Shown: positions 7,211-52,130, counted from the first letter of the stretch. The stretch is 64,000 nucleotides of DNA from Candidatus Bathyarchaeia archaeon (GCA_049521795.1 JBEKOM010000008.1:1-64000); one strand, 5' to 3'. Translations and numbers: made by a program. Notes: generated from the letters alone by a model not told the origin.

Positions 7211-7998
7211 ATGCTCATCTGCCTCTAGCCAAGACTTCCATGTCTTTGTGTTCCCAGATGTGTTACTCTGAGACAGAGTAGTCTTCAAATCGATGGAAGA
7301 GAGTAAAAAGGATTATGAATGCCCTGTAAAGATTGAAACTCGATTAAAAACGACGCGCGGTGTTTGTATGTCTGTTTGGGATAAAACTTTACCATCGCAC
7401 ACGCTTGCGTGATGTTCTCAAAAACAGATTCGGTATGATAGAAACAAGGCAGAATTAGGTTTGGCGGGGTCGCTTAGGTCAAAGCCTGCGTTTGGCCTCT
7501 TAGGCCCTCTCTATTGGCATCTTGTCGGTTTTCAGCACACGCTTAGTCAATAGTGTAAATCTCTTGAATTGAAAGAATATACAGGTACCTTATGTTTTCA
7601 AGGTCCTAGTTTTCTTCTTTTTGCAGCACAAACGCGCTTTTTTCAACGTTGTCTACTGAAAAAAGCAAAAAATACTTCGAATGGCTAACTCTTAATGGAT
7701 GAGTGTGGCGGATGGTGGTTCTTCCTTCTCCTTTCATTCTGCCATCCTCCTCATGAAACATGTTTTATGCGTACTAATTCCGAAAGCATCTCGGAAAATG
7801 GAAAAGGGCAAGAAATTGATTCCAAGCAGTTCACCAGGTTCTAGCGCGTGCTTGCTTGTTAATGCTCGCGGTGGGCTTATTATGGGTTTTTCGATCAAGA
7901 CGACGACTGTGAGCTGGTTTTTTGTGGCTGATGGGTTGATGCTCCAGCTCTTGCCATGGTTGAGCGTGTCCTGATCTGGTTCGTGAGTTCAGCTGTGC

Positions 7999-16273: not shown

Positions 16274-16388
16274 AGCGAGACCTCACTTATGATTCTGTAC
16301 CCCTTTATTTAAGAGTTGACAAATTGGCGCGCTGCCTAGCATAGGAAAGAGTAATCTGTGACCTCAGGAAAACGCATAATGAGAGACT

Positions 16389-17015
16389 ATGAAACCTGTC
16401 GGTAAGGCACGTGCAGCAAGAAAGCATGAACGAACGAAGAGAAGGGTCATTGCGATTTCTGCTGTGCTTCTTTTTGCGGGGTTGCTTGCAGTCGCGTATT
16501 TTTGGTCTTCTGGAAAGAATGAGGCAGAAGGGTTTCAGGTTTTCAGAGATCACTACTTGGGAATAATGAAGAGCTTGAACTCCACCGAAGTCAAACTCAA
16601 TATGGCATCGGAACTCGATGGAAAATATAATTTCACTGATCTCTTCGCGTGGGAACACGGCAAGCTCACGTTTGCTCAGGATCCTGCGGGCTGGTTTGAA
16701 GATCCTGTTGAAATCCTGAACAGCGGAAAGGGAATCTGCATGCAATTCAGTATAGTCTACGTGTCCGCGTGCTTAGCCCTGGGCTATCAGAGCAGGCTCG
16801 TCGTGGCGGCTAACGTGACCAGCTGGACCTTTATACATGCCTGGGCTGAAGTCTACTTCAACGGCAGCTGGGTTCACGTAGACCCCTCAGACCAGATCTG
16901 GGACAAACCATCAAGGTATCAAGATTGGGATTGGGGCAAAAGCATAGGGCTAGACGTTAAGATATACGCTTTTGAAGACGGAGAATTCGCAGACGCAACC
17001 TCAGCTTACAGCTAA
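16389..17015 (+). CDS. Membrane-anchored transglutaminase-like protein
   Basis: N-terminal TM; Cys-His-Asp triad GICMQFS, HAWAEV, VDP. Confidence 0.85.
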   Translation: MKPVGKARAARKHERTKRRVIAISAVLLFAGLLAVAYFWSSGKNEAEGFQVFRDHYLGIMKSLNSTEVKLNMASELDGKYNFTDLFAWEHGKLTFAQDPAGWFEDPVEILNSGKGICMQFSIVYVSACLALGYQSRLVVAANVTSWTFIHAWAEVYFNGSWVHVDPSDQIWDKPSRYQDWDWGKSIGLDVKIYAFEDGEFADATSAYS

Positions 17016-17306
17016 AATTCAAGCTAGAAGCGGAACACCAAATCGATCGCAGCGCGCGCCCTTACAGTACCGAGACAATTTTACGTGCTCTACGCGCGCG
17101 AAGAGCCATTTCACCTTTCCTCGTGCCTTTTCTCCTTGACTCTATTTCTGGCTACAGACTTGTGAAAACGTGCTGATTTGGTCCGGGGTTGCTCAGTTCA
17201 ATGCCCCACGCTTGAACCCTTGGAGGAATAGCCAGTGTAGAGCAAGACTTAGACAGCCTCTTTATCAAAATCAAGCTCAATTGTTGCCTAGAACAAGGAT
17301 TTTTGG

Positions 17307-17433
17307 TGGTGGGGTCGCTGGGATTTGAACCCAGGATCGCCAACGCCCCAGGCTGGTATACTAAACCAATCTAGCCACCCTACGCCCAGTATCACCACCA
17401 CCGAGCTTAAGGCAGAAGCTATACGACGACCCC
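17307..17433 (-). tRNA. tRNA-Pro(GGG) with 48-nt non-canonical D-loop intron (~17369-17416)
   Basis: Spliced sequence GGGGTCG TC GTAT AGCTTGGTTTA GTAT A CCAGC CT GGG GC GTTGG CGATC CTGGG TTCAAAT CCCAG CGACCCC A CCA folds as a cloverleaf. The insert forms its own hairpin (CTGCCTTA/TAGGGTGG, GCTCGGT/ACTGGGC) with a relaxed BHB junction. Confidence 0.85.
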
Positions 17434-17579
17434 AACAAGAAACACCATACCAAGACCAAATAGATAAAACAATCGCCAAAGCCATAATGGAAGGAAAAGC
17501 CACAAACACGATCAAAGTGTTCAAACACAGATTAACACAACTAAGCAAAGTGGCTGACCTAAACAACCCCGCTCTCTAG
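17325..17579 (+). pseudogene. Truncated N-terminal fragment of a tyrosine integrase, antisense to tRNA-Pro
   Basis: ORF reads through the tRNA antisense strand (PGSPTPQAGILNQ...AIRRP) into GKATNTIKVFKHRLTQLSKVADLNNP, which resembles the core-binding domain of archaeal tRNA-targeting integrases. It stops before any catalytic domain. Confidence 0.55.
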
Positions 17580-17634
17580 CAGTCTTTTAGCCTCTTCTAA
17601 CGTCGCGCGCGCTAACGAGAGCGGTGCCTCTAAA

Positions 17635-20600
17635 CTACACTTCGCCCTTCAGCCAGCCTCGAATTCCCAGCTCTTTCACAGTAACAGGTGCTTGCTCGAG
17701 CTCGCAGAATTTGTGCTCGCCCGTTTCATCCATGTATTTGATTTTTGGTGCGAACGTGAATTTTCCTTTTCTCTTGGGTTTTAATATCATTTTTATCTCA
17801 GCCGTTTCAAGAGGCGCCAGTCCTCTCCGCTTAAGGTTAAGACCGGAATCGTTGACCACACATTTTTCAGGCTTCTCAACCAAATCGAAACCTTCTGGAA
17901 TCAGCTGTTCAATGTCCATCAAAAAGGCTGTTTCTTTGCCTAGGTTAGCTAGTTGAATTTCTAAGTCAAGAGTTTCACCGACCACAAGCTCCTTTGGATG
18001 AATGACCAAGTTTGCTTGGACGAATGCTCGTGAAAACTTGACAAGACCAACTGGTTCTTCCACGGTCATGCCAGGTGGTGACATTATGCGAGTAGTAGAG
18101 GGTTCAGTAGGAGTAACCAACAGTTCTCCGAGCGACAGCGCAAATTCGCGTTTTTCCCTCAAGCGCGTTAAAGTCTTCAGAACTTCGTCTCTTCTGCCCA
18201 CGTAACCCGCTTTTTCGAAAAGATTGGCTGATCTTTCCAAACACTTTTCTGCAAGAGAATACTCCTTCGATTTTTCGTTCGGATTGGCTTCTGTTTCTGC
18301 CTCAGTCATGTAGTTACTAGCGTCAAACAGCATTTCCGTTCCGCTCGTCCATGAGGAGGCACTGTCAAAACCGGCTTTCAGATAACAGTTTGCCGCATTT
18401 TCGAGATACTGTTTTGCCCTTAAGAAATCGCTTCTTTCCCTCGTTGTTTCGAACGTCGTCCCATGTTCCAAGGCTTTGCAGTACGCGCCGTTGCCAGAAG
18501 CCAGCATAGCCGTCCTGTCCTTCACGCTTTGTTCTTTCGCCTTGAGAAACAACTCGGAGGCTTCACGGTAGAGTTCCGGGGAAATTCTGCTGTCAGCGAT
18601 CTTCATCTTTTGCCAAGCGCGGCACATGAAAGCGATTTGCCTTATCTCTTTCTCATCGGTTTCTTTCTCCAATATCCCTTCTAGCACTGTAGCGGCTGAA
18701 TCGTACCTTGTCGCGCTTTCTGCATGATCCCCGTTTCTATCAGCCATCCTTGCTTCCTCGATGTTTATTCTTGCAATGCAATAGTCTTTTCTTTCGAGAG
18801 AGGCTTTGCATAGCTCAATTGCTTTTTCTCTTTCGTCTAGATTCTCGATTTTACTGGTCTCTTCTTCAAAAGCTTCTTTGGCTTCTTTGAAGAGTTCTGC
18901 TGATTTGTTGAAGGCTTCTATTGATTCGGTGTAGTTCTCTTTTCCGCTCAGATCCTCTGCTTTTTCGAGAAGTGACCATGCCTTAAAATTTGAAGAAAGG
19001 TGACCCCATCGCCTTGAATGCTCGAGAACGGTTGCTACTTTTTCATAGTGTTTTGAGGCATCGTCATAGTTTTCGTGATCGTGGGTAGATTTGGCTTTTT
19101 CAATCTCGCTCCATGCATCCATATACGCGGCGTAGTCAAGACAGAAGTCTGCGAAATGTGGAATCATTTGAGCTGTCTCTTTGTACTCGGCAAACGCATT
19201 TCCAAAATGCTCTGCCGCCTTGATGTGCTGACCTAGACGGTCTTGGTTAATTGCCATTTTCCAATACGACTCTGCAGCGCGGCTGGGCAACTTGACCTTC
19301 TTGTATTGTTTTGCAGCGTCTTCGTACACCTCGACTGCTTTTTGCATGGATTTTTCGTTCTTTGTCAATGCGAAAAGCTCGTTGAGAATTCCCCCAAGGG
19401 AGTCTTCGTAAGTTGCTACAGCGGCTATGTTCGTCGGTACTGGGCGAGAAAAAATCCATCTCTTGCAGTGTGTTACGCTGTCCTCTATGTCTGCGGCAGC
19501 GTTTTCGAGCAAGACCTTCTTCTTTTCGTTGTCAGCTTCAACTTTGACCATATCCACCTTTATGAGTCCCTCGTAGTTTTTGTTGACTCCGGTGAGCCAA
19601 TCGTTCGATGGATATGCTTTCTCCACTAGCCTTTCGACATCGTACCTGTAAACCAAAGCTTCCTCAAGCAACTTTTTCTTCTCATCTTTGTCGACTTCAA
19701 GATTAGAGTAGAAGTGTATAGCTTTGCTCAAAGCGTGAAGGGTGGAGCCAAGGGCATCAGGAGAACCTGAGCGTTTCGCGTATTCTAACCCTTTGCGTCC
19801 CGCTTGTACTGCTTTTCCCAGAATCCTTCTTCTCTCTTCTGAACTAGCGTCAACGTCTGATCCTGAAGCAGAATAACTTTCAGCATAGTACAAGTAGGTT
19901 TGTGCGACGTAAAAATCTTGGCAAACCAGTTGAAGGCAACTTATCGCATGTTCCGAAAACTCGATGATCTTCCTATGTCCTTCCTTTTTCTTGTCCGGAT
20001 CCCCTTCCCTCACGGTCCTCCAATCAGTCACGAGCGCAAGGAGATAGTATGCAACTCCTTTCAAATAATTGTCTCTTATTTCGGCCCCCTGTTTCAACAT
20101 CTCTTCAGCATATCTAAACGAGTCCTCAGCGTTTTCAGTGAAGATAATAGTGGAATGGGCTGCTGCGCAGTTTGCCATAGCGACGAGTGAAGGATTTTCC
20201 ACTTGCTTTGATAGTTCAAGGGCTTTCTCTGAATAACTAATGCTTCTTTGCACAAGTTCTTTACGTGTTCTCTCGTCTTGCTCACTGAAATTCGCCGCAT
20301 ACCAGTTCAAGAGACTGGCTGTGGAAAAGGCACCGAGCAAATCTTCCTTGTCCGCAAGCTTTGACAAAACGTTGATCGCGTCAAGGCCGTAGGTGATCGC
20401 CTCCTGAGTGAGGTCTTTCAGTTCCCTCCAATCAGATGCGATGCTAAGTCTCTCGAAAAAGCAACGCAACAAATCATTGCACATCTTTCCATAGCTCGCT
20501 TCGTCCGCAGATTTTTTGTATTTTTCCAGGCTTTCTTTTCCGAGCTTTAGACACTCATCGAGCGTTGTTCTTTTTTCCGCTGAGGTTGGTGCTAGCCATG

Positions 20601-20928
20601 AACTGACAAGTTCTGCGATGGCATTGCGCTGAGCCCTCTTTCCTTGATTTTCAAGCGTGCCCTCGCTCTCAAGAGCTTTCGCTGAAGACCTGTAAGCTTC
20701 CACTGCTGATTGCCGGAGTCTTGCAAATTCCTCCACGGTTTCAGCTTGCCTAGAAGCGGACTCGTAGCAATCGCCGATTTTCTCCCACAAGTTGCCTACA
20801 AATGAAGCATCCTCGATTCTGGAGCGCAGCAATTGCTCATAGCATTTCGCCGCTTTGAACCACTCATACGTTTTCTCTTGTTCTTTTGCTTTTTCCAGAA
20901 GTGACTGCGTGTCGAAATGCGAGTTCAT
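17635..20928 (-). CDS. Large alpha-helical (TPR-like) repeat protein with C-terminal Ig-like domain
   Basis: 1097 aa, rich in A/E/K/Y helical repeats; C-terminal VGETLDLEIQLANLG...IPEGF...GKFTFAPKIKY beta-sandwich. Confidence 0.7.
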   Translation of the reverse strand: MNSHFDTQSLLEKAKEQEKTYEWFKAAKCYEQLLRSRIEDASFVGNLWEKIGDCYESASRQAETVEEFARLRQSAVEAYRSSAKALESEGTLENQGKRAQRNAIAELVSSWLAPTSAEKRTTLDECLKLGKESLEKYKKSADEASYGKMCNDLLRCFFERLSIASDWRELKDLTQEAITYGLDAINVLSKLADKEDLLGAFSTASLLNWYAANFSEQDERTRKELVQRSISYSEKALELSKQVENPSLVAMANCAAAHSTIIFTENAEDSFRYAEEMLKQGAEIRDNYLKGVAYYLLALVTDWRTVREGDPDKKKEGHRKIIEFSEHAISCLQLVCQDFYVAQTYLYYAESYSASGSDVDASSEERRRILGKAVQAGRKGLEYAKRSGSPDALGSTLHALSKAIHFYSNLEVDKDEKKKLLEEALVYRYDVERLVEKAYPSNDWLTGVNKNYEGLIKVDMVKVEADNEKKKVLLENAAADIEDSVTHCKRWIFSRPVPTNIAAVATYEDSLGGILNELFALTKNEKSMQKAVEVYEDAAKQYKKVKLPSRAAESYWKMAINQDRLGQHIKAAEHFGNAFAEYKETAQMIPHFADFCLDYAAYMDAWSEIEKAKSTHDHENYDDASKHYEKVATVLEHSRRWGHLSSNFKAWSLLEKAEDLSGKENYTESIEAFNKSAELFKEAKEAFEEETSKIENLDEREKAIELCKASLERKDYCIARINIEEARMADRNGDHAESATRYDSAATVLEGILEKETDEKEIRQIAFMCRAWQKMKIADSRISPELYREASELFLKAKEQSVKDRTAMLASGNGAYCKALEHGTTFETTRERSDFLRAKQYLENAANCYLKAGFDSASSWTSGTEMLFDASNYMTEAETEANPNEKSKEYSLAEKCLERSANLFEKAGYVGRRDEVLKTLTRLREKREFALSLGELLVTPTEPSTTRIMSPPGMTVEEPVGLVKFSRAFVQANLVIHPKELVVGETLDLEIQLANLGKETAFLMDIEQLIPEGFDLVEKPEKCVVNDSGLNLKRRGLAPLETAEIKMILKPKRKGKFTFAPKIKYMDETGEHKFCELEQAPVTVKELGIRGWLKGEV

Positions 20929-21384
20929 CGCCTGTCAATCATACTTAACGGCTGGGCTTATGAAAGGTTTTCGCATGATACGTTTATAATTCTTGCCTTT
21001 CTTTCTCTCCGGCAGATCCTAGCGCGCCCATGGTGTTTCCGAAAACATTGCCGCTTAAGGTCGTATTGAATTACCAGTACGGTGCCGCTGAAAAGTTGTC
21101 GAGTCGCGAAAAGAGGCGAGTTCGTCCTCAACTCCACACTTGAACAAAACCTTTAGGCTTTTTCCTCCTCGTTTCGCACGATCAACTCAAATCATGCCTT
21201 CCTCGCGCGCACCAAGGATGGCTTTGCTAGCTGTAGGATAGTATTTTTTCAGAAAAGCATTTCCGAAGGAGAAACGGTGAGAATTCTTTGGTTTGTTTGG
21301 CACGCGCGCTGGAAAGCTTGAGATGAAAAAAGTTAAATGAAAGCAGCAGTACAACACTATTGTATATTCACAGGTGAAAGGGGA

Positions 21385-22749
21385 ATGAGGAAAGCGCTAG
21401 AAGTGATGGTAATAGGAGTTCTGTGTTTATCTGTTTTTTTCGTTTCTTCTATAGGCTCTATTTTGTCAACATCACGAAGGATTGTCTCGCACTCCTCCGC
21501 TTTAGATGAACCCCCCACTTTGGTAGGAGTCAGTGTTAGGCTTTTTGATGGTTCTGTGAGTGTCAGTTACTCCGACTACTTCTACGTGAAGCACGGATGG
21601 GTGGCCTACAACTGGAGCGGTGTGCCCACGCCAGCCCAAAATGCGTTCCTAGACCCAGCGCAAAACAACTTCACTTTAACGACGAACGCCTCAGGCTTCA
21701 CAAACCCGCCTCTGAGCCAATACACAGAATACAACAGCACGGAAGACTCGATGGCAAGCTGGTTCTGGATCCAATTCTATCCAGGAAACCTCACTCCCGG
21801 AACATACTCATTAACGGGCACCTGGCAAGAAGCTGCAGCTGCTAACTATCCAAACTATACCGACATCTACAGTCAAAGAACGATCACGCTTTTCGTAAAT
21901 CCTGCAAATTCCACAACGCTGGTTTCCCTTTCACCCAACCTTGTCTCTGTCGGCCACGTTGCTAACTGCACCGCTACGGTGTCAGGACTAAACGCAACCG
22001 GCACCATCAACTGGACGACGAGCAGCATCGGAGGCTCGTTCGGTTCAAACGTCGGAATCTTGTCCGCTGGAGGCACAACAACCACTTATGTCGACAACTT
22101 CACCGGCTACGTGATGATCACGGCATGGTACAGTGGAGACTCAAACAACGCGCCGAGCAGCGGCAGCGCCGTTCTAACGGTTTTCGTTAACGTCTCGACG
22201 GGAACAAACGTCATGGTTTACCCGACCGCTGGCCTAACACTGAATTTCAACAGCGTCACGTCTGCCGGTTACACGGTCGCAAACACAACGCCAACCGTTA
22301 ACGCACCTCCGTTGAACAACACGGTTGGCCCATACTACAACATCAAGGTGACCGCAGGTTTTTCTGGCAACGTGACGGTTAGCTTGGCTTTTGACGGTTC
22401 AAACATGACGACGGAGCAGAAAAACAGTCTGCAGATGGCGCAGTACACGCCCATACCCGGCGACTTCAAGGGCGAAGGCATAGTAAACATACTCGACGCC
22501 ATAATACTGGGCAATGCGTTCGTTTCACATTGTCCAAACTATGACTATGTTGGAGAACCGGCTAGTCCTAACTGGAATCCCAACGCTGACCTGAACGGCG
22601 ACGGCATCATCAATATCCTGGACGCCATAATCCTTGGAAACCACTTCCTTCAAACCGCCAACTGGGTAAACATAACATTGTACGTCGACACAACGAACAA
22701 CATCGTCTACGGACAAACCTCACACTTCTCCTTCATAACAATACACTAA
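21385..22749 (+). CDS. Secreted Ig-like protein with dockerin-like domain
   Basis: Signal peptide, T/S/N-rich beta domains, GDFKGEGIVNILDA...ADLNGDGIINILDA duplicated Ca-loop. Confidence 0.8.
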   Translation: MRKALEVMVIGVLCLSVFFVSSIGSILSTSRRIVSHSSALDEPPTLVGVSVRLFDGSVSVSYSDYFYVKHGWVAYNWSGVPTPAQNAFLDPAQNNFTLTTNASGFTNPPLSQYTEYNSTEDSMASWFWIQFYPGNLTPGTYSLTGTWQEAAAANYPNYTDIYSQRTITLFVNPANSTTLVSLSPNLVSVGHVANCTATVSGLNATGTINWTTSSIGGSFGSNVGILSAGGTTTTYVDNFTGYVMITAWYSGDSNNAPSSGSAVLTVFVNVSTGTNVMVYPTAGLTLNFNSVTSAGYTVANTTPTVNAPPLNNTVGPYYNIKVTAGFSGNVTVSLAFDGSNMTTEQKNSLQMAQYTPIPGDFKGEGIVNILDAIILGNAFVSHCPNYDYVGEPASPNWNPNADLNGDGIINILDAIILGNHFLQTANWVNITLYVDTTNNIVYGQTSHFSFITIH

Positions 22750-22775
22750 GGAAAAGATTTCACTTTGCCCTCAAA

Positions 22776-22814
22776 CCTAGACTGGCATACTAAACCAAGC
22801 TATACGACGGCCCC
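22776..22814 (-). repeat. Intron-less 5' half of tRNA-Pro (att-like remnant)
   Basis: GGGGCCGTCGTATAGCTTGGTTTAGTATGCCAGTCTAGG matches the spliced tRNA-Pro up to the anticodon with 4 transitions; no 3' half follows. Confidence 0.8.
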
Positions 22815-22915
22815 ACAGAGGTAGGTTAGTACTCCTTGAGGACGTAGCCCTTAAGGCTTTATTTTCTTTTCCTTCATAGCGTTTCTACGGATAGAGAATC
22901 AGATGGATGATGAAG

Positions 22916-23224
22916 TCATTGTTTGTCGGTTTGCGTAACTAAACCTAGGGTTTTCTTCTCAAGATATGTAGGTGCTTTCTGACTGATCAAACGTTTCTGT
23001 ATGAATTCATAACCGCATTCACACTTGAACCCAACAGTCTCATTCTTTATCGTCAGCAGACTATTGATGCGTGATGCTTTGCATCCTGTTTCTAGTTTGT
23101 GCATTCTCCAAGTTAAAGCAAGATCGTCCAGATTCATAGGGTTGAGCGTTTCCGCTTTGAACAGGAACCAAAAGACATATGATATCAAGCTGACCCAGAA
23201 AATCAACGCTAGCCATTCCAGCAT
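22916..23224 (-). CDS. Hypothetical membrane-anchored protein with H/C...CxC motif
   Basis: N-terminal TM; WRMHKLETGC...GFKCECG. Confidence 0.6.
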   Translation of the reverse strand: MLEWLALIFWVSLISYVFWFLFKAETLNPMNLDDLALTWRMHKLETGCKASRINSLLTIKNETVGFKCECGYEFIQKRLISQKAPTYLEKKTLGLVTQTDKQ

Positions 23225-23454
23225 TCTTTCACAACCATGCTTACAACGCATAATCTAGATTTTTCACCGGTGCGCGCCTGATGTTTAGGGCAGAGCCCTA
23301 GATTAAAGAATTGTGAACCAAGCATCTTTACTTCAAATCAAAGACTGCATCACATACTCGGTAATTCTTGAAGTAATAAAGAAGCGAAGGCAGGCCTGAA
23401 TGGGGAAGAAATGGATGGGTCCACTGCTCAATCCACGTCTTCTTGCAACTTGAA

Positions 23455-24561
23455 TCATTCTGTCCAGTAGACCCGTCCGTTCGGACCCTTGGATTCTTTC
23501 AAGACTTCCTTTTTCACTCTGCGAGCGAGAAAATTCACAATCTTGCGCTCTTTGCCTTTGGTCAAGAGACCTCGGGACTCTAAGGCTTTGACCACATCTC
23601 TCACTGTTCTTCTACTGGTTTGCTTGAAAAATCCTTCGCGAACCAGACCTTCAAACGCGCGATGCGCGTGACCGCCCCATGTTTGAGCAATATTGCAGCG
23701 TCGTGTCTTCTGTGCTGTTCCGAGGACCATGAATTTCTTCTGAAGACGTTCAAAGGAAGATCCCACGACCTGGATATTCTCCATAACTCCTTCTCCGAGG
23801 TCTCTCTTCACAAATTCCTGTATCACAGGCATCTTTTGAGGGTTAAGACCAGCAATTGTAGCTCCAACTGTCTCTACGGCAACCGCATCTCTTCCAGCGA
23901 GCATAGTGTTCACCCGCACTGGAGCACCGCCTGCACCGCGCCAAAGGTACGTTCCGTCCAGCACGGCAAGGTCTATGCCGCCGACAGCTTCGTACACGTC
24001 CGCGAGGAGTGAAGGGAGAACTTTGTGATATTTTATTCTCTTCGAGTCTGGAATGCACCCGAAAAGGTTCTTGAGGATGCTTCCACTCTCAAAGGAGCGC
24101 AGAATGTGCGTGTCAACTAAGACGTTGGGTTTGAACAGTGTGTGCGACAAGTTCATTTCTCGGTCAGCAAGCTTCACTTTTTTGGTGTCTGAGTCATCTG
24201 AGAGGTTGAAGGGAATAACTCGCTCTGTGAAAAGCTTCTTCCATATTTGAAGCCTCTCTGAACCGGTGCCTTTGTAATTGTCAGATTCAGCCAAGAAAAT
24301 CTTCGGCGTTCTATCGAAACAATCGATGATTGCCTCAACCAAGCTCACTGAGGCGTGGTTTTCCGCCTTATGACTGAATACGCCGACCTTAATGACAACA
24401 GGTCTCTCAGCAGTGTTCAGGTCATCTATTCCGCCGATCAGGTCGAGAAGTCGCCTCAACTGCGTCTCCTCGTCACCATTAAATTCGACCACAGCCACTT
24501 TCGAAGTCAATGTCAAACCTCGCTTTAGAACGGAACAATGTGGATATTCATTGAAAAACAA
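23455..24561 (-). CDS. DUF362 domain protein (start may be ~24510)
   Basis: SKVAVV, VVIKV, AESD, LKNLFG, LAVLDG, DAVAVE pattern; C-terminal wHTH-like extension. Confidence 0.75.
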   Translation of the reverse strand: MFFNEYPHCSVLKRGLTLTSKVAVVEFNGDEETQLRRLLDLIGGIDDLNTAERPVVIKVGVFSHKAENHASVSLVEAIIDCFDRTPKIFLAESDNYKGTGSERLQIWKKLFTERVIPFNLSDDSDTKKVKLADREMNLSHTLFKPNVLVDTHILRSFESGSILKNLFGCIPDSKRIKYHKVLPSLLADVYEAVGGIDLAVLDGTYLWRGAGGAPVRVNTMLAGRDAVAVETVGATIAGLNPQKMPVIQEFVKRDLGEGVMENIQVVGSSFERLQKKFMVLGTAQKTRRCNIAQTWGGHAHRAFEGLVREGFFKQTSRRTVRDVVKALESRGLLTKGKERKIVNFLARRVKKEVLKESKGPNGRVYWTE

Positions 24562-51965: not shown

Positions 51966-52070
51966 GCCGGGGTCTCCTAGCTAGGTATGGAGCAAGCCTG
52001 GAGACGATCAAATTCGCCTAACAGCTTGTGGCCTCTCGGGGCCACGTGGGTTCAAATCCCACCCCCGGCG
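51966..52070 (+). tRNA. tRNA-Ser(GGA) with 19-nt intron at 37/38 (52004-52022)
   Basis: GCCGGGG/CCCCGGC acceptor, CAAGC/GCTTG anticodon stem with CT-GGA-G, long variable arm TGGCC/GGCCA, GTGGG-TTCAAAT-CCCAC, discriminator G, followed by T6. Confidence 0.93.
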
Positions 52071-52130
52071 CTTTTTTACCAGTAAATCTTATATAGATTC
52101 CGCATTTAACTTTAAAGAGGGCTGGTCGAT

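Follow-up and report, generated by a model that had tools for sequence, protein, structure and literature searches.

A decayed integrative element probably supplied the D-loop intron, 5′ half and promoter of a bathyarchaeial tRNA-Pro(GGG) gene

The window analysed here is a 64,000-nucleotide (nt) stretch of DNA from Candidatus Bathyarchaeia archaeon (GCA_049521795.1, JBEKOM010000008.1:1-64000), contig C8 of an archaeal genome of 2.44 Mb (69 contigs, 98.75% complete; G000 below). On its minus strand, at 17307-17433, lies a tRNA-Pro(GGG) gene with a 48-nt insert in the D loop. Comparison with relatives makes it highly probable that an integrative element, now decayed, installed this insert as an intron, together with a new 5′ half and a new promoter, by way of an intron-bearing phage-side attachment site (attP) inside the reading frame of its own 'suicidal' integrase. 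The case shows how odd tRNA introns can be gained.

Anatomy of the tRNA-Pro(GGG) locus

The acceptor strand of the complete gene, GGGGTCG (17427-17433), pairs with CGACCCC directly before the encoded ACCA, whose end is at 17307. The insert sits between the D-loop bases AGC(U) and (U)UGG. The junction that fits a bulge-helix-bulge (BHB) motif divides the minus strand into exon 1 (17417-17433, positions 1-17), a 48-nt D-loop intron of the BHB type (17369-17416) and exon 2 (17307-17368, position 17a to the encoded CCA), and three junctions, one base apart, yield identical mature RNA. Once the intron is removed, positions 1-33 equal the sequence of intron-less relatives and a canonical tRNA is restored. 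Exon 2 is 94-99% identical over 67-69 nt to the tRNA-Pro(GGG) of six same-genus genomes. ARAGORN misses the true gene, calling just 17307-17381 with a mispaired acceptor, and Rfam gives no match at gathering score. A sub-threshold Rfam match to tmRNA (27.4 bits versus 47, loose threshold) spans 17307-17433 because the acceptor and T arm match; we rejected it as an artefact.

On the plus strand, the intron reads as 16 sense codons in the former integrase frame. Specifically, the frame at the complete gene is ...AGILNQ-SSHPTPSITTTELKAE-AIRRPQQETPYQDQIDKTIAKAIMEGKATNTIKVFKHRLTQLSKVADLNNPAL*, that is, ILNQ-SSHPTPSITTTELKAE-AIRRP, versus ILNQ-AIRRP at a second, partial copy of the tRNA. It leads into an integrase stub, int(C) (17434-17569, plus strand), which aligns to full-length integrases and whose open reading frame (ORF) continues to a TAG at 17577-17579. 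The peptide encoded by 17325-17576 matches the N-terminus of a 353-residue (aa) integrase ORF from a same-genus genome (E = 2e-27), and stub residues 1-51 alone align to the integrase of a same-genus genome with 72.5% identity (E = 7e-19). The stub comprises the N-terminal ~50 residues of the integrase and has no catalytic domain; a Pfam search with the 84-aa stub alone gave nothing significant. Homology to full-length integrase genes stops at 17569, some 45 codons in, so it was a deletion or rearrangement that truncated the gene, rather than a point mutation.

The partial copy (22779-22814, minus strand) would represent positions 1-33 of the original host tRNA-Pro(GGG), a 5′ part without intron that was displaced. 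A repeat search finds it as two blocks with spacings of 5429 (D3) and 5381 (D10), the difference being exactly 48 nt. The 36-nt copy differs from the complete gene at 3 of 36 positions (C5, G26 and U31), and the likeness ends after U33. Exon 1 of the complete gene would be element-delivered, and exon 2 host-derived from position 34 on.

Each copy is preceded by a promoter-like box. The stranded half has the host-type tRNA promoter box AAAGCCTTAAG (22850-22860, minus strand) at −46 to −36 from G1; AAAGCT(C/T)TAAAT-like boxes at about −48 to −33 precede many tRNA genes of this genome, and the stranded-half promoter flank recurs in the same-genus genome G002. The complete gene has the TATA-like TTTTATCT (17462-17469, minus strand) at −36 to −29 from G1, within the integrase stub. 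T-rich boxes lie at the same distance from G1 in integrase types A, B and C, and the type C peptide there differs; TTTTATCT is presumably the replacement promoter of the complete tRNA gene.

This anatomy agrees with an original prediction made from the window, which had described a complete tRNA-Pro(GGG) with a 48-nt D-loop intron, a same-orientation intron-less 5′ half 5.4 kb upstream, promoter-like boxes near both copies, an intron of 16 stop-free codons in the antisense integrase frame, and integrase similarity of the 17434-17579 peptide.

An SSV-type integrase carries the intron within its reading frame

Four genomes of the same genus (G001, G002, G008 and G009) have a 336-385-codon ORF, measured stop to stop, that runs antisense through the whole tRNA. 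These full-length relatives belong to the tyrosine recombinase / phage integrase family (PF00589), with matches of 28.0 bits (E 2e-6) in G008 and 26.1 bits (E 8e-6) in G001 against a cut-off of 27.1; a full-length integrase also matches the PHROG 216 integrase (E 7.5e-4) and the archaeal XerA 4a8e (E 0.006). When excision was simulated by joining the stranded-copy flank in silico to the complete gene, the integrase ORF became continuous, gaining an ATG and an N-terminal extension, in G002 (361 aa), G008 (416 aa) and G041 (373 aa). The window has a stop just before the attachment (att) site, and the int(N) part of the gene is therefore lost.

The unintegrated form of the element is represented by the metagenome contig L093. 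It encodes an intact 336-aa integrase, with GGAGGTGA and an ATG upstream and a ribosome-binding site present. In order, it reads an ATG, 15 codons, antisense tRNA positions 33-17, 16 intron codons, the antisense 5′ exon and the rest of the integrase, so that tRNA positions 33-1 plus the intron make up codons ~16-44 and the protein reads MTENNTTLENYLAQK-AGILDQ-(16 intron codons)-AIRRP. Past tRNA position 33 the sequence is element end, not tRNA, and no T arm or tRNA 3′ half was found within 5.9 kb. Furthermore, a conserved element gene of ~340 aa lies ~1.5 kb upstream of the integrase, as a circular permutation predicts. Because L093 holds the intron inside an intact integrase ORF, the intron is part of both attP and the integrase gene. 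The integrase would accordingly be of the SSV type ('suicidal'), with attP within the reading frame and the gene split by integration. The original prediction had called for a search for intact integrases with a matching N-terminus, with or without the 16-aa insert; the relatives supply full-length forms and L093 holds the 16-codon insert.

Searches for further relatives were negative within their scope. The integrase profile found no relative in a viral contig collection, and tblastn of plasmid and phage collections, which may not include pTN3, gave no integrase match at E ≤ 1e-3. Pfam returned nothing for four other ORFs of the G001 element or for the G041 copy of the conserved ~340-aa gene.

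Relatives reveal an integration hot spot and intron exchange

The window, G001 and G002 share synteny on the left, adenosine-deaminase flank and on the right flank (a 111-aa gene with its neighbour), and each has different DNA between the tRNA and the 111-aa gene; the flanks are thus host DNA. The 111-aa host gene (22916-23251, minus strand) marks the far edge of the insertion hot spot: its orthologues adjoin the outermost stranded half in G002 and lie on the same side in G001.

The tRNA 5′ part is present in additional copies in G001 (one), G002 (two), G008 (one) and G041 (one), and also in G042 and G043. All seven stranded copies that reach the anticodon stem diverge after U33, into sequence common to several elements, and the duplicated segment, positions 1-33, identifies the tRNA 5′ part as the host attachment site (attB). 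Two copies are shorter: one in G002 ends near position 24, and a fragment in G042 ends near position 20. The copies with a host-type promoter (window, both of G002, G041 and G043) are intron-less, and the intron always adjoins the integrase in this comparison. The stranded copies of G001 and G008 carry a different, older intron and integrase stub, and a later element therefore swapped the intron in these two genomes. The exchange that the original prediction had named as a possibility is thus seen in relatives; the locus in the window is not a fresh snapshot, since its element has decayed.

Among 20 tRNA-Pro(GGG) loci from 41 relatives, an integrase or stub adjoins G1 in 6/6 insert-bearing loci and in 0/14 intron-less loci; tblastn detects five of the six, and the 25-aa stub of G005 is seen only as an ORF. 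All 23 metagenome loci with upstream sequence carry a D-loop insert. Within the genus, the inserts fall into three unrelated sequence types, each paired with its own integrase type.

These data bear on the possibility that the intron is an old, vertically inherited host intron, that elements with an intron-less attP integrated upstream, and that the stranded half is element-derived. Six same-genus genomes do carry an insert at the same place in the D loop, and D-loop introns with host promoters occur as orphans in other genera (L112 and L114, below). Vertical inheritance is nevertheless improbable, as it does not account for three unrelated insert types that each travel with their own integrase type, for the intron-less same-genus genome G003, for intron-less copies that hold the host promoter on the host-flank side, or for the free L093 form with the intron inside its integrase gene. 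Moreover, a crossover at position 33 with an intron-less attP predicts an intron-less complete gene, and the opposite is seen.

The original prediction had expected relatives without the insert to show an intron-less tRNA-Pro next to the gene at 22916. G003 supplies the intron-less tRNA-Pro(GGG), on a contig too short to show that neighbour. A further genome, G042 (contigs C23, C33 and C208), has two tRNA-Pro(GGG) genes, one intact and intron-less, the other intron-bearing, linked to an integrase and hybrid in its U5·G68 pair; the assembly may combine element-bearing and element-free strains, which would make it a natural pair of filled and empty sites. In G001 (locus L021, ~7553-7662), the complete tRNA-Pro(GGG) has CCAGACCT in the anticodon stem, against CCAGCCT in all others, and the extra A may be an assembly error.

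The intron conserves a splice motif on one strand and a reading frame on the other

As the BHB criterion we took a 4-bp helix with a 3-nt bulge on either side, the bulges holding the splice sites (PMC4090602). We looked for it at the junction whose use yields the D loop seen in intron-less relatives, because a naive, unbiased scan was less clear, picking the expected junction just for intron types B and C. At this junction the window has AUAG[CU|U]...CUAG[AU|U], with 3/4 bp in the central helix (H), two 3-nt bulges and an inner helix (h′) of 16 bp; none of 2000 shuffled introns was as good. All eight intron types of complete genes have a BHB at the canonical junction, with 2-3 of the 4 helix pairs formed and 7-17 bp in the inner helix, and shuffled introns equal the real motif 0-8 times in 2000. 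Fourteen further loci have a BHB, matched by shuffles 0-26 times in 1000, and in hosts with C12 the central helix is CUAG/CUAG with 4/4 pairs. The alignment of 11 distinct sequences of the 48-nt class has 89.5% of cells paired versus 31-43% with a slid partner, and six pairs are altered on both sides; the covariation score was reached by 0/500 shuffles. The minimum-free-energy fold of the whole precursor was uninformative (z = −1.64). The genome encodes two paralogues of the splicing endonuclease EndA, in the regions G000:C1:264960-265202 and C5:55689-55943, an arrangement that goes with lenient, heteromeric enzymes (PMC4090602). Splicing would join ...AGCU to UGGUUUAG.

A second alternative is that the insert is left unspliced, the gene being a pseudogene made of integration debris while another tRNA reads the CCY codons. 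The annotation programs do fail to recognise the full gene, and genes for tRNA-Pro(UGG) and tRNA-Pro(CGG) are present in the genome. We consider this very unlikely, because the window gene is the sole GGG-anticodon gene detected in a genome that is 98.75% complete, its exons are intact and closely similar to those of relatives, and a BHB with compensatory changes lies exactly at the D-loop-restoring junction in 8/8 types. The stranded copy of G008, which is clearly non-functional, has by contrast lost the motif (H 1/4, h′ 0), and the two EndA paralogues argue in the same direction.

The opposite strand is constrained as well. The integrase frame is open through exons and intron in 11/11 genes, covering the eight intron types. 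Intron lengths are 0 mod 3 (48, 48, 54, 45, 42 and 39) or 2 mod 3 (44 and 38) and never 1 mod 3, a length that would lead into the one antisense tRNA frame with a stop. The same DNA thus has to satisfy RNA structure on one strand and protein coding on its complement. We also considered the intron as a source of a start codon for int(C) after integration, and dropped the idea because ATGs occur in type C only and in neither A nor A′.

The hairpin loops of otherwise dissimilar introns (~17385-17400 in the window) keep a GGTGNTAT(A/C)(C/T)TGG-like core, which in integrase sense is ..GATA(C/T)C(C/A)AC.., often I-T-T/N. Common descent, protein constraint or a DNA/RNA signal could each explain this core.

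The element of the window has decayed

Only 136 nt of int(C) are left in the window, int(N) is gone, and the interior consists of two genes of host-type families. One is a 1097-aa ORF (17635-20928, minus strand) that matches TPR/SNAP weakly; it belongs to a multicopy, genus-specific family, whose orthologues in relatives lie elsewhere. The other, a 470-aa ORF (21337-22749, plus strand), contains a type I dockerin domain and is one of many such proteins. Neither is shared with related elements, and PHROGs gave nothing for the 1097-aa, 470-aa or 111-aa ORF. The base composition of the insert is unremarkable.

A 12,469-nt contig of a public peat run (X1) covers 17339-23600 with zero differences, and the arrangement is therefore not an assembly artefact of the metagenome-assembled genome. 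Among the contigs of four peat and soil DNA runs, compared over 16300-23600, neither an empty site nor an excised form was found, and no listed contig piece from the same runs bridges 17114-17339. That the stranded half arose by segmental duplication or an assembly chimera unrelated to integration is exceedingly improbable: the cover is broken around 17114-17339, with no listed piece bridging from the left flank, and the interior genes are host-type, yet the X1 contig makes intron, stub, interior and stranded half contiguous, and the same architecture with the same tRNA end position recurs in G001, G002, G008, G041 and G043.

Two candidate signatures of the element were rejected. A match of contig G010:C72 to 22652-22756, tried as a circular junction of the insert, is the end of a paralogous dockerin gene with nothing further collinear. 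The motif CCTTAGTGTATTG (22739-22751) resembles CCTTAGTAATTC at the ends of other elements; it lies ~27 nt farther from the att site, inside the dockerin ORF.

A model for intron installation

In the model that we favour, the single tRNA-Pro(GGG) gene would be the former target of a small integrative element. Its attP, near the integrase N-terminus and antisense to the tRNA, would hold a copy of tRNA positions 1-33 with a BHB intron in the D loop. A crossover between this attP and the intron-less host gene, close to the anticodon loop, where identity ends at U33, would replace host positions 1-33 by the element's intron-bearing copy; the tRNA would then depend on a promoter that the integrase gene contains in antisense. 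The 5′ part and promoter native to the host would be moved to the distal end of the insert, where int(N) would also come to lie, and int(C), the other part of the split integrase, would sit beside the tRNA. The precursor tRNA would then be spliced by the host's heteromeric-type endonuclease, and the element has decayed since.

This is essentially what the original prediction had put forward, namely that the element delivered a replacement 5′ half, promoter and intron and stranded the original half; host synteny, the intron-less stranded halves, L093 and G003 all agree with it. Its alternative, that the intron arrived later and blocked excision, found no support.

Several observations weigh against the model. 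The 5.2 kb of 17570-22775 has no match to related elements, and because the interior shares nothing with relatives and holds host-type genes, the present insert is no recognisable element; capture or rearrangement may have shaped it. The C5 of the stranded half faces A68 in the 3′ half of the complete gene, a mismatch that the original prediction had rightly flagged: either an original C5:G68 pair was followed by a G68-to-A change, or the stranded copy drifted. C5 pairs with G68 in G003, which lacks the element, and U5 pairs with G68 in G042, which has it; together they make plausible, as no proof, a route in which the window passed through a U5·G68 wobble before fixing A68. In same-genus introns the central helix has only 3/4 pairs (A12·G), and the naive scan of the window ties with a 46-nt alternative (UAGC/GCUA, 4/4) that would leave two extra U in the D loop. 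Splicing of the window tRNA-Pro(GGG), like use of the TTTTATCT promoter, is a prediction from sequence. Finally, 4 of 14 genomes with a D-loop insert in a wider sample (L111, L112, L114 and L117) combine a host-type promoter and a D-loop intron with no integrase, and transfer may therefore run from host to element or from element to host.

What the element gains from the intron may be a direct repeat split into 16 + 17 bp in place of 33 bp, which would hinder deletion, or an altered target for rivals. The serial integrations indicate that rival elements are not fully blocked.

Spread of the integrase family and candidate orphan introns

The integrase family is present in 182 of 401 Bathyarchaeia genomes (E ≤ 1e-10), and all named relatives with the integrase are metagenome-assembled genomes of Candidatus Bathyarchaeia or Bathyarchaeota. 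The closest members lie antisense at the 5′ end of tRNA-Pro, -Arg, -Gly and -Val genes, some with a D-loop insert and others lacking one, and more distant members follow the 3′ end of tRNA-Ala, -Thr and -Gln genes. In the order-level sample mentioned above, of 301 genomes, a D-loop insert of 32-62 nt interrupts the tRNA-Pro(GGG) of 14, which represent 13 of 98 genera. Besides the four integrase-less cases, these include eight with an integrase or stub at G1, one that retains a 26-aa vestige, and one with a distant integrase that is arranged differently. L112 has an intron similar to those of element type G and of an element-borne type (G377). The integrase-less introns look like orphans left after element loss, though they could be sources. 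At two of these loci, L112 (G421:C18) and L114 (G543:C48), the central helix of the BHB has 4/4 pairs, the promoters are of the host type, and no integrase lies within 1.5 kb.

With less confidence than for the window itself, we lean towards a broader reading: a clade of suicidal integrases in Bathyarchaeia would keep a functional BHB tRNA intron in its own coding sequence, on the opposite strand, and each integration would install a D-loop intron, in tRNA-Pro(GGG) or, for related elements, in tRNA-Arg(GCG). Each superintegration would swap the intron; later, decay of the element, or a deletion between the two 5′-exon copies, would leave an orphan intron behind the host promoter. The system would be a general and ongoing source of non-canonical tRNA introns in Archaea.

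Outside the window, at G000:C1:382592-383641 (L048/L075), a second case from this genome pairs a tRNA-Arg(GCG), which has a 36-nt D-loop insert and which ARAGORN miscalls as an intron-bearing tRNA-Thr(CGU), with a full-length same-family integrase (E 1.7e-82, 382-aa frame) antisense to it at its 5′ end; no second copy of the 15-nt 5′ end of this tRNA-Arg(GCG) was found in the G000 assembly. In metagenome locus L098 (Ga0209725_1006417, 2433-2516 and downstream), a tRNA-Pro(GGG) with an integrase-linked D-loop intron also has a 20-nt insert at 37/38, and this two-intron gene was apparently built in two steps.

Relation to known systems

The origin of non-canonical archaeal tRNA introns is an old question. 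In Thermoproteota, their origin is unknown or has been ascribed to transposition between tRNAs. The sole mechanistic proposal in the literature searched rests on one locus: for the tRNA-Thr(GGU) of Caldiarchaeum subterraneum, recombination of an intron-bearing attP with an intron-less attB was proposed (Sugahara 2012, PMC3293823), and a later review repeats the proposal and describes pTN3-like integrases that target the tRNA 5′ half (Badel 2021, PMC8371274). The idea behind the original prediction is thus supported here and is not new in principle. As in the window, the Caldiarchaeum locus has a 5′ fragment upstream of a complete gene with an extra non-canonical intron, and its insert encodes a recombinase (PMC3293823). 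As described there, that case comprises one locus, with the intron at 24/25 and a predicted, pNOB8-like recombinase without tRNA overlap, and no attP form is given (PMC3293823). The present system differs in its host (Bathyarchaeia), its target (tRNA-Pro(GGG)) and its intron position (D loop, 17/17a), and also in an SSV-type integrase that runs through the intron, covarying variants, an attP contig, intron swaps and orphans. To the earlier proposal it adds an identifiable integrase family, a free attP form, many intron variants, serial exchange, and decayed and orphan states.

The integrases of pTN3/TKV4 from Thermococcales resemble the present ones in that attB is the tRNA 5′ part (Leu 2-44), the integrase is disrupted on integration, and the tRNA is parted from its original promoter; the accounts of their att site report no intron (PMC5495485, PMC8371274). 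The pTN3-type tRNA is expressed from the integrase promoter (PMC8371274), whereas here the integrase is antisense to the tRNA and a separate promoter inside int(C) is therefore needed. The fusellovirus SSV1 likewise has attP in the integrase ORF, int(N) and int(C) at the provirus ends, and a tRNA segment as att site; unlike here, that segment is a tRNA-Arg 3′ part (44 bp), described without an intron (PMC8371274, PMC3293823), and the host promoter is therefore kept. The non-canonical BHB introns of Thermoproteota share with ours the 4-bp helix with two 3-nt bulges, a position other than 37/38 and the presence of two EndA paralogues (PMC4090602); here, in contrast, there is an identified vector, and the strand opposite the intron is protein-coding. 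The system combines two published ideas, an intron-bearing attP (PMC3293823) and pTN3-type integrases that target the tRNA 5′ half. We found no report, in the literature searched, of an intron inside an integrase reading frame or of this system in Bathyarchaeia.

Other features of the window and its relatives

The family of the 1097-aa ORF occurs at five more places in G000, has up to 15 matches in G009, and is near-confined to the genus among the genomes searched. The 470-aa ORF contains two dockerin-type repeats at 22462-22640 (53 nt, 75% alike, 126 nt apart), and G002, G003 and G005 likewise have dockerin proteins around their tRNA-Pro locus. Elsewhere in the window, at 51966-52071, ARAGORN with introns allowed finds a tRNA-Ser(GGA) gene, missed by the default run, that has a 19-nt intron at the canonical position.

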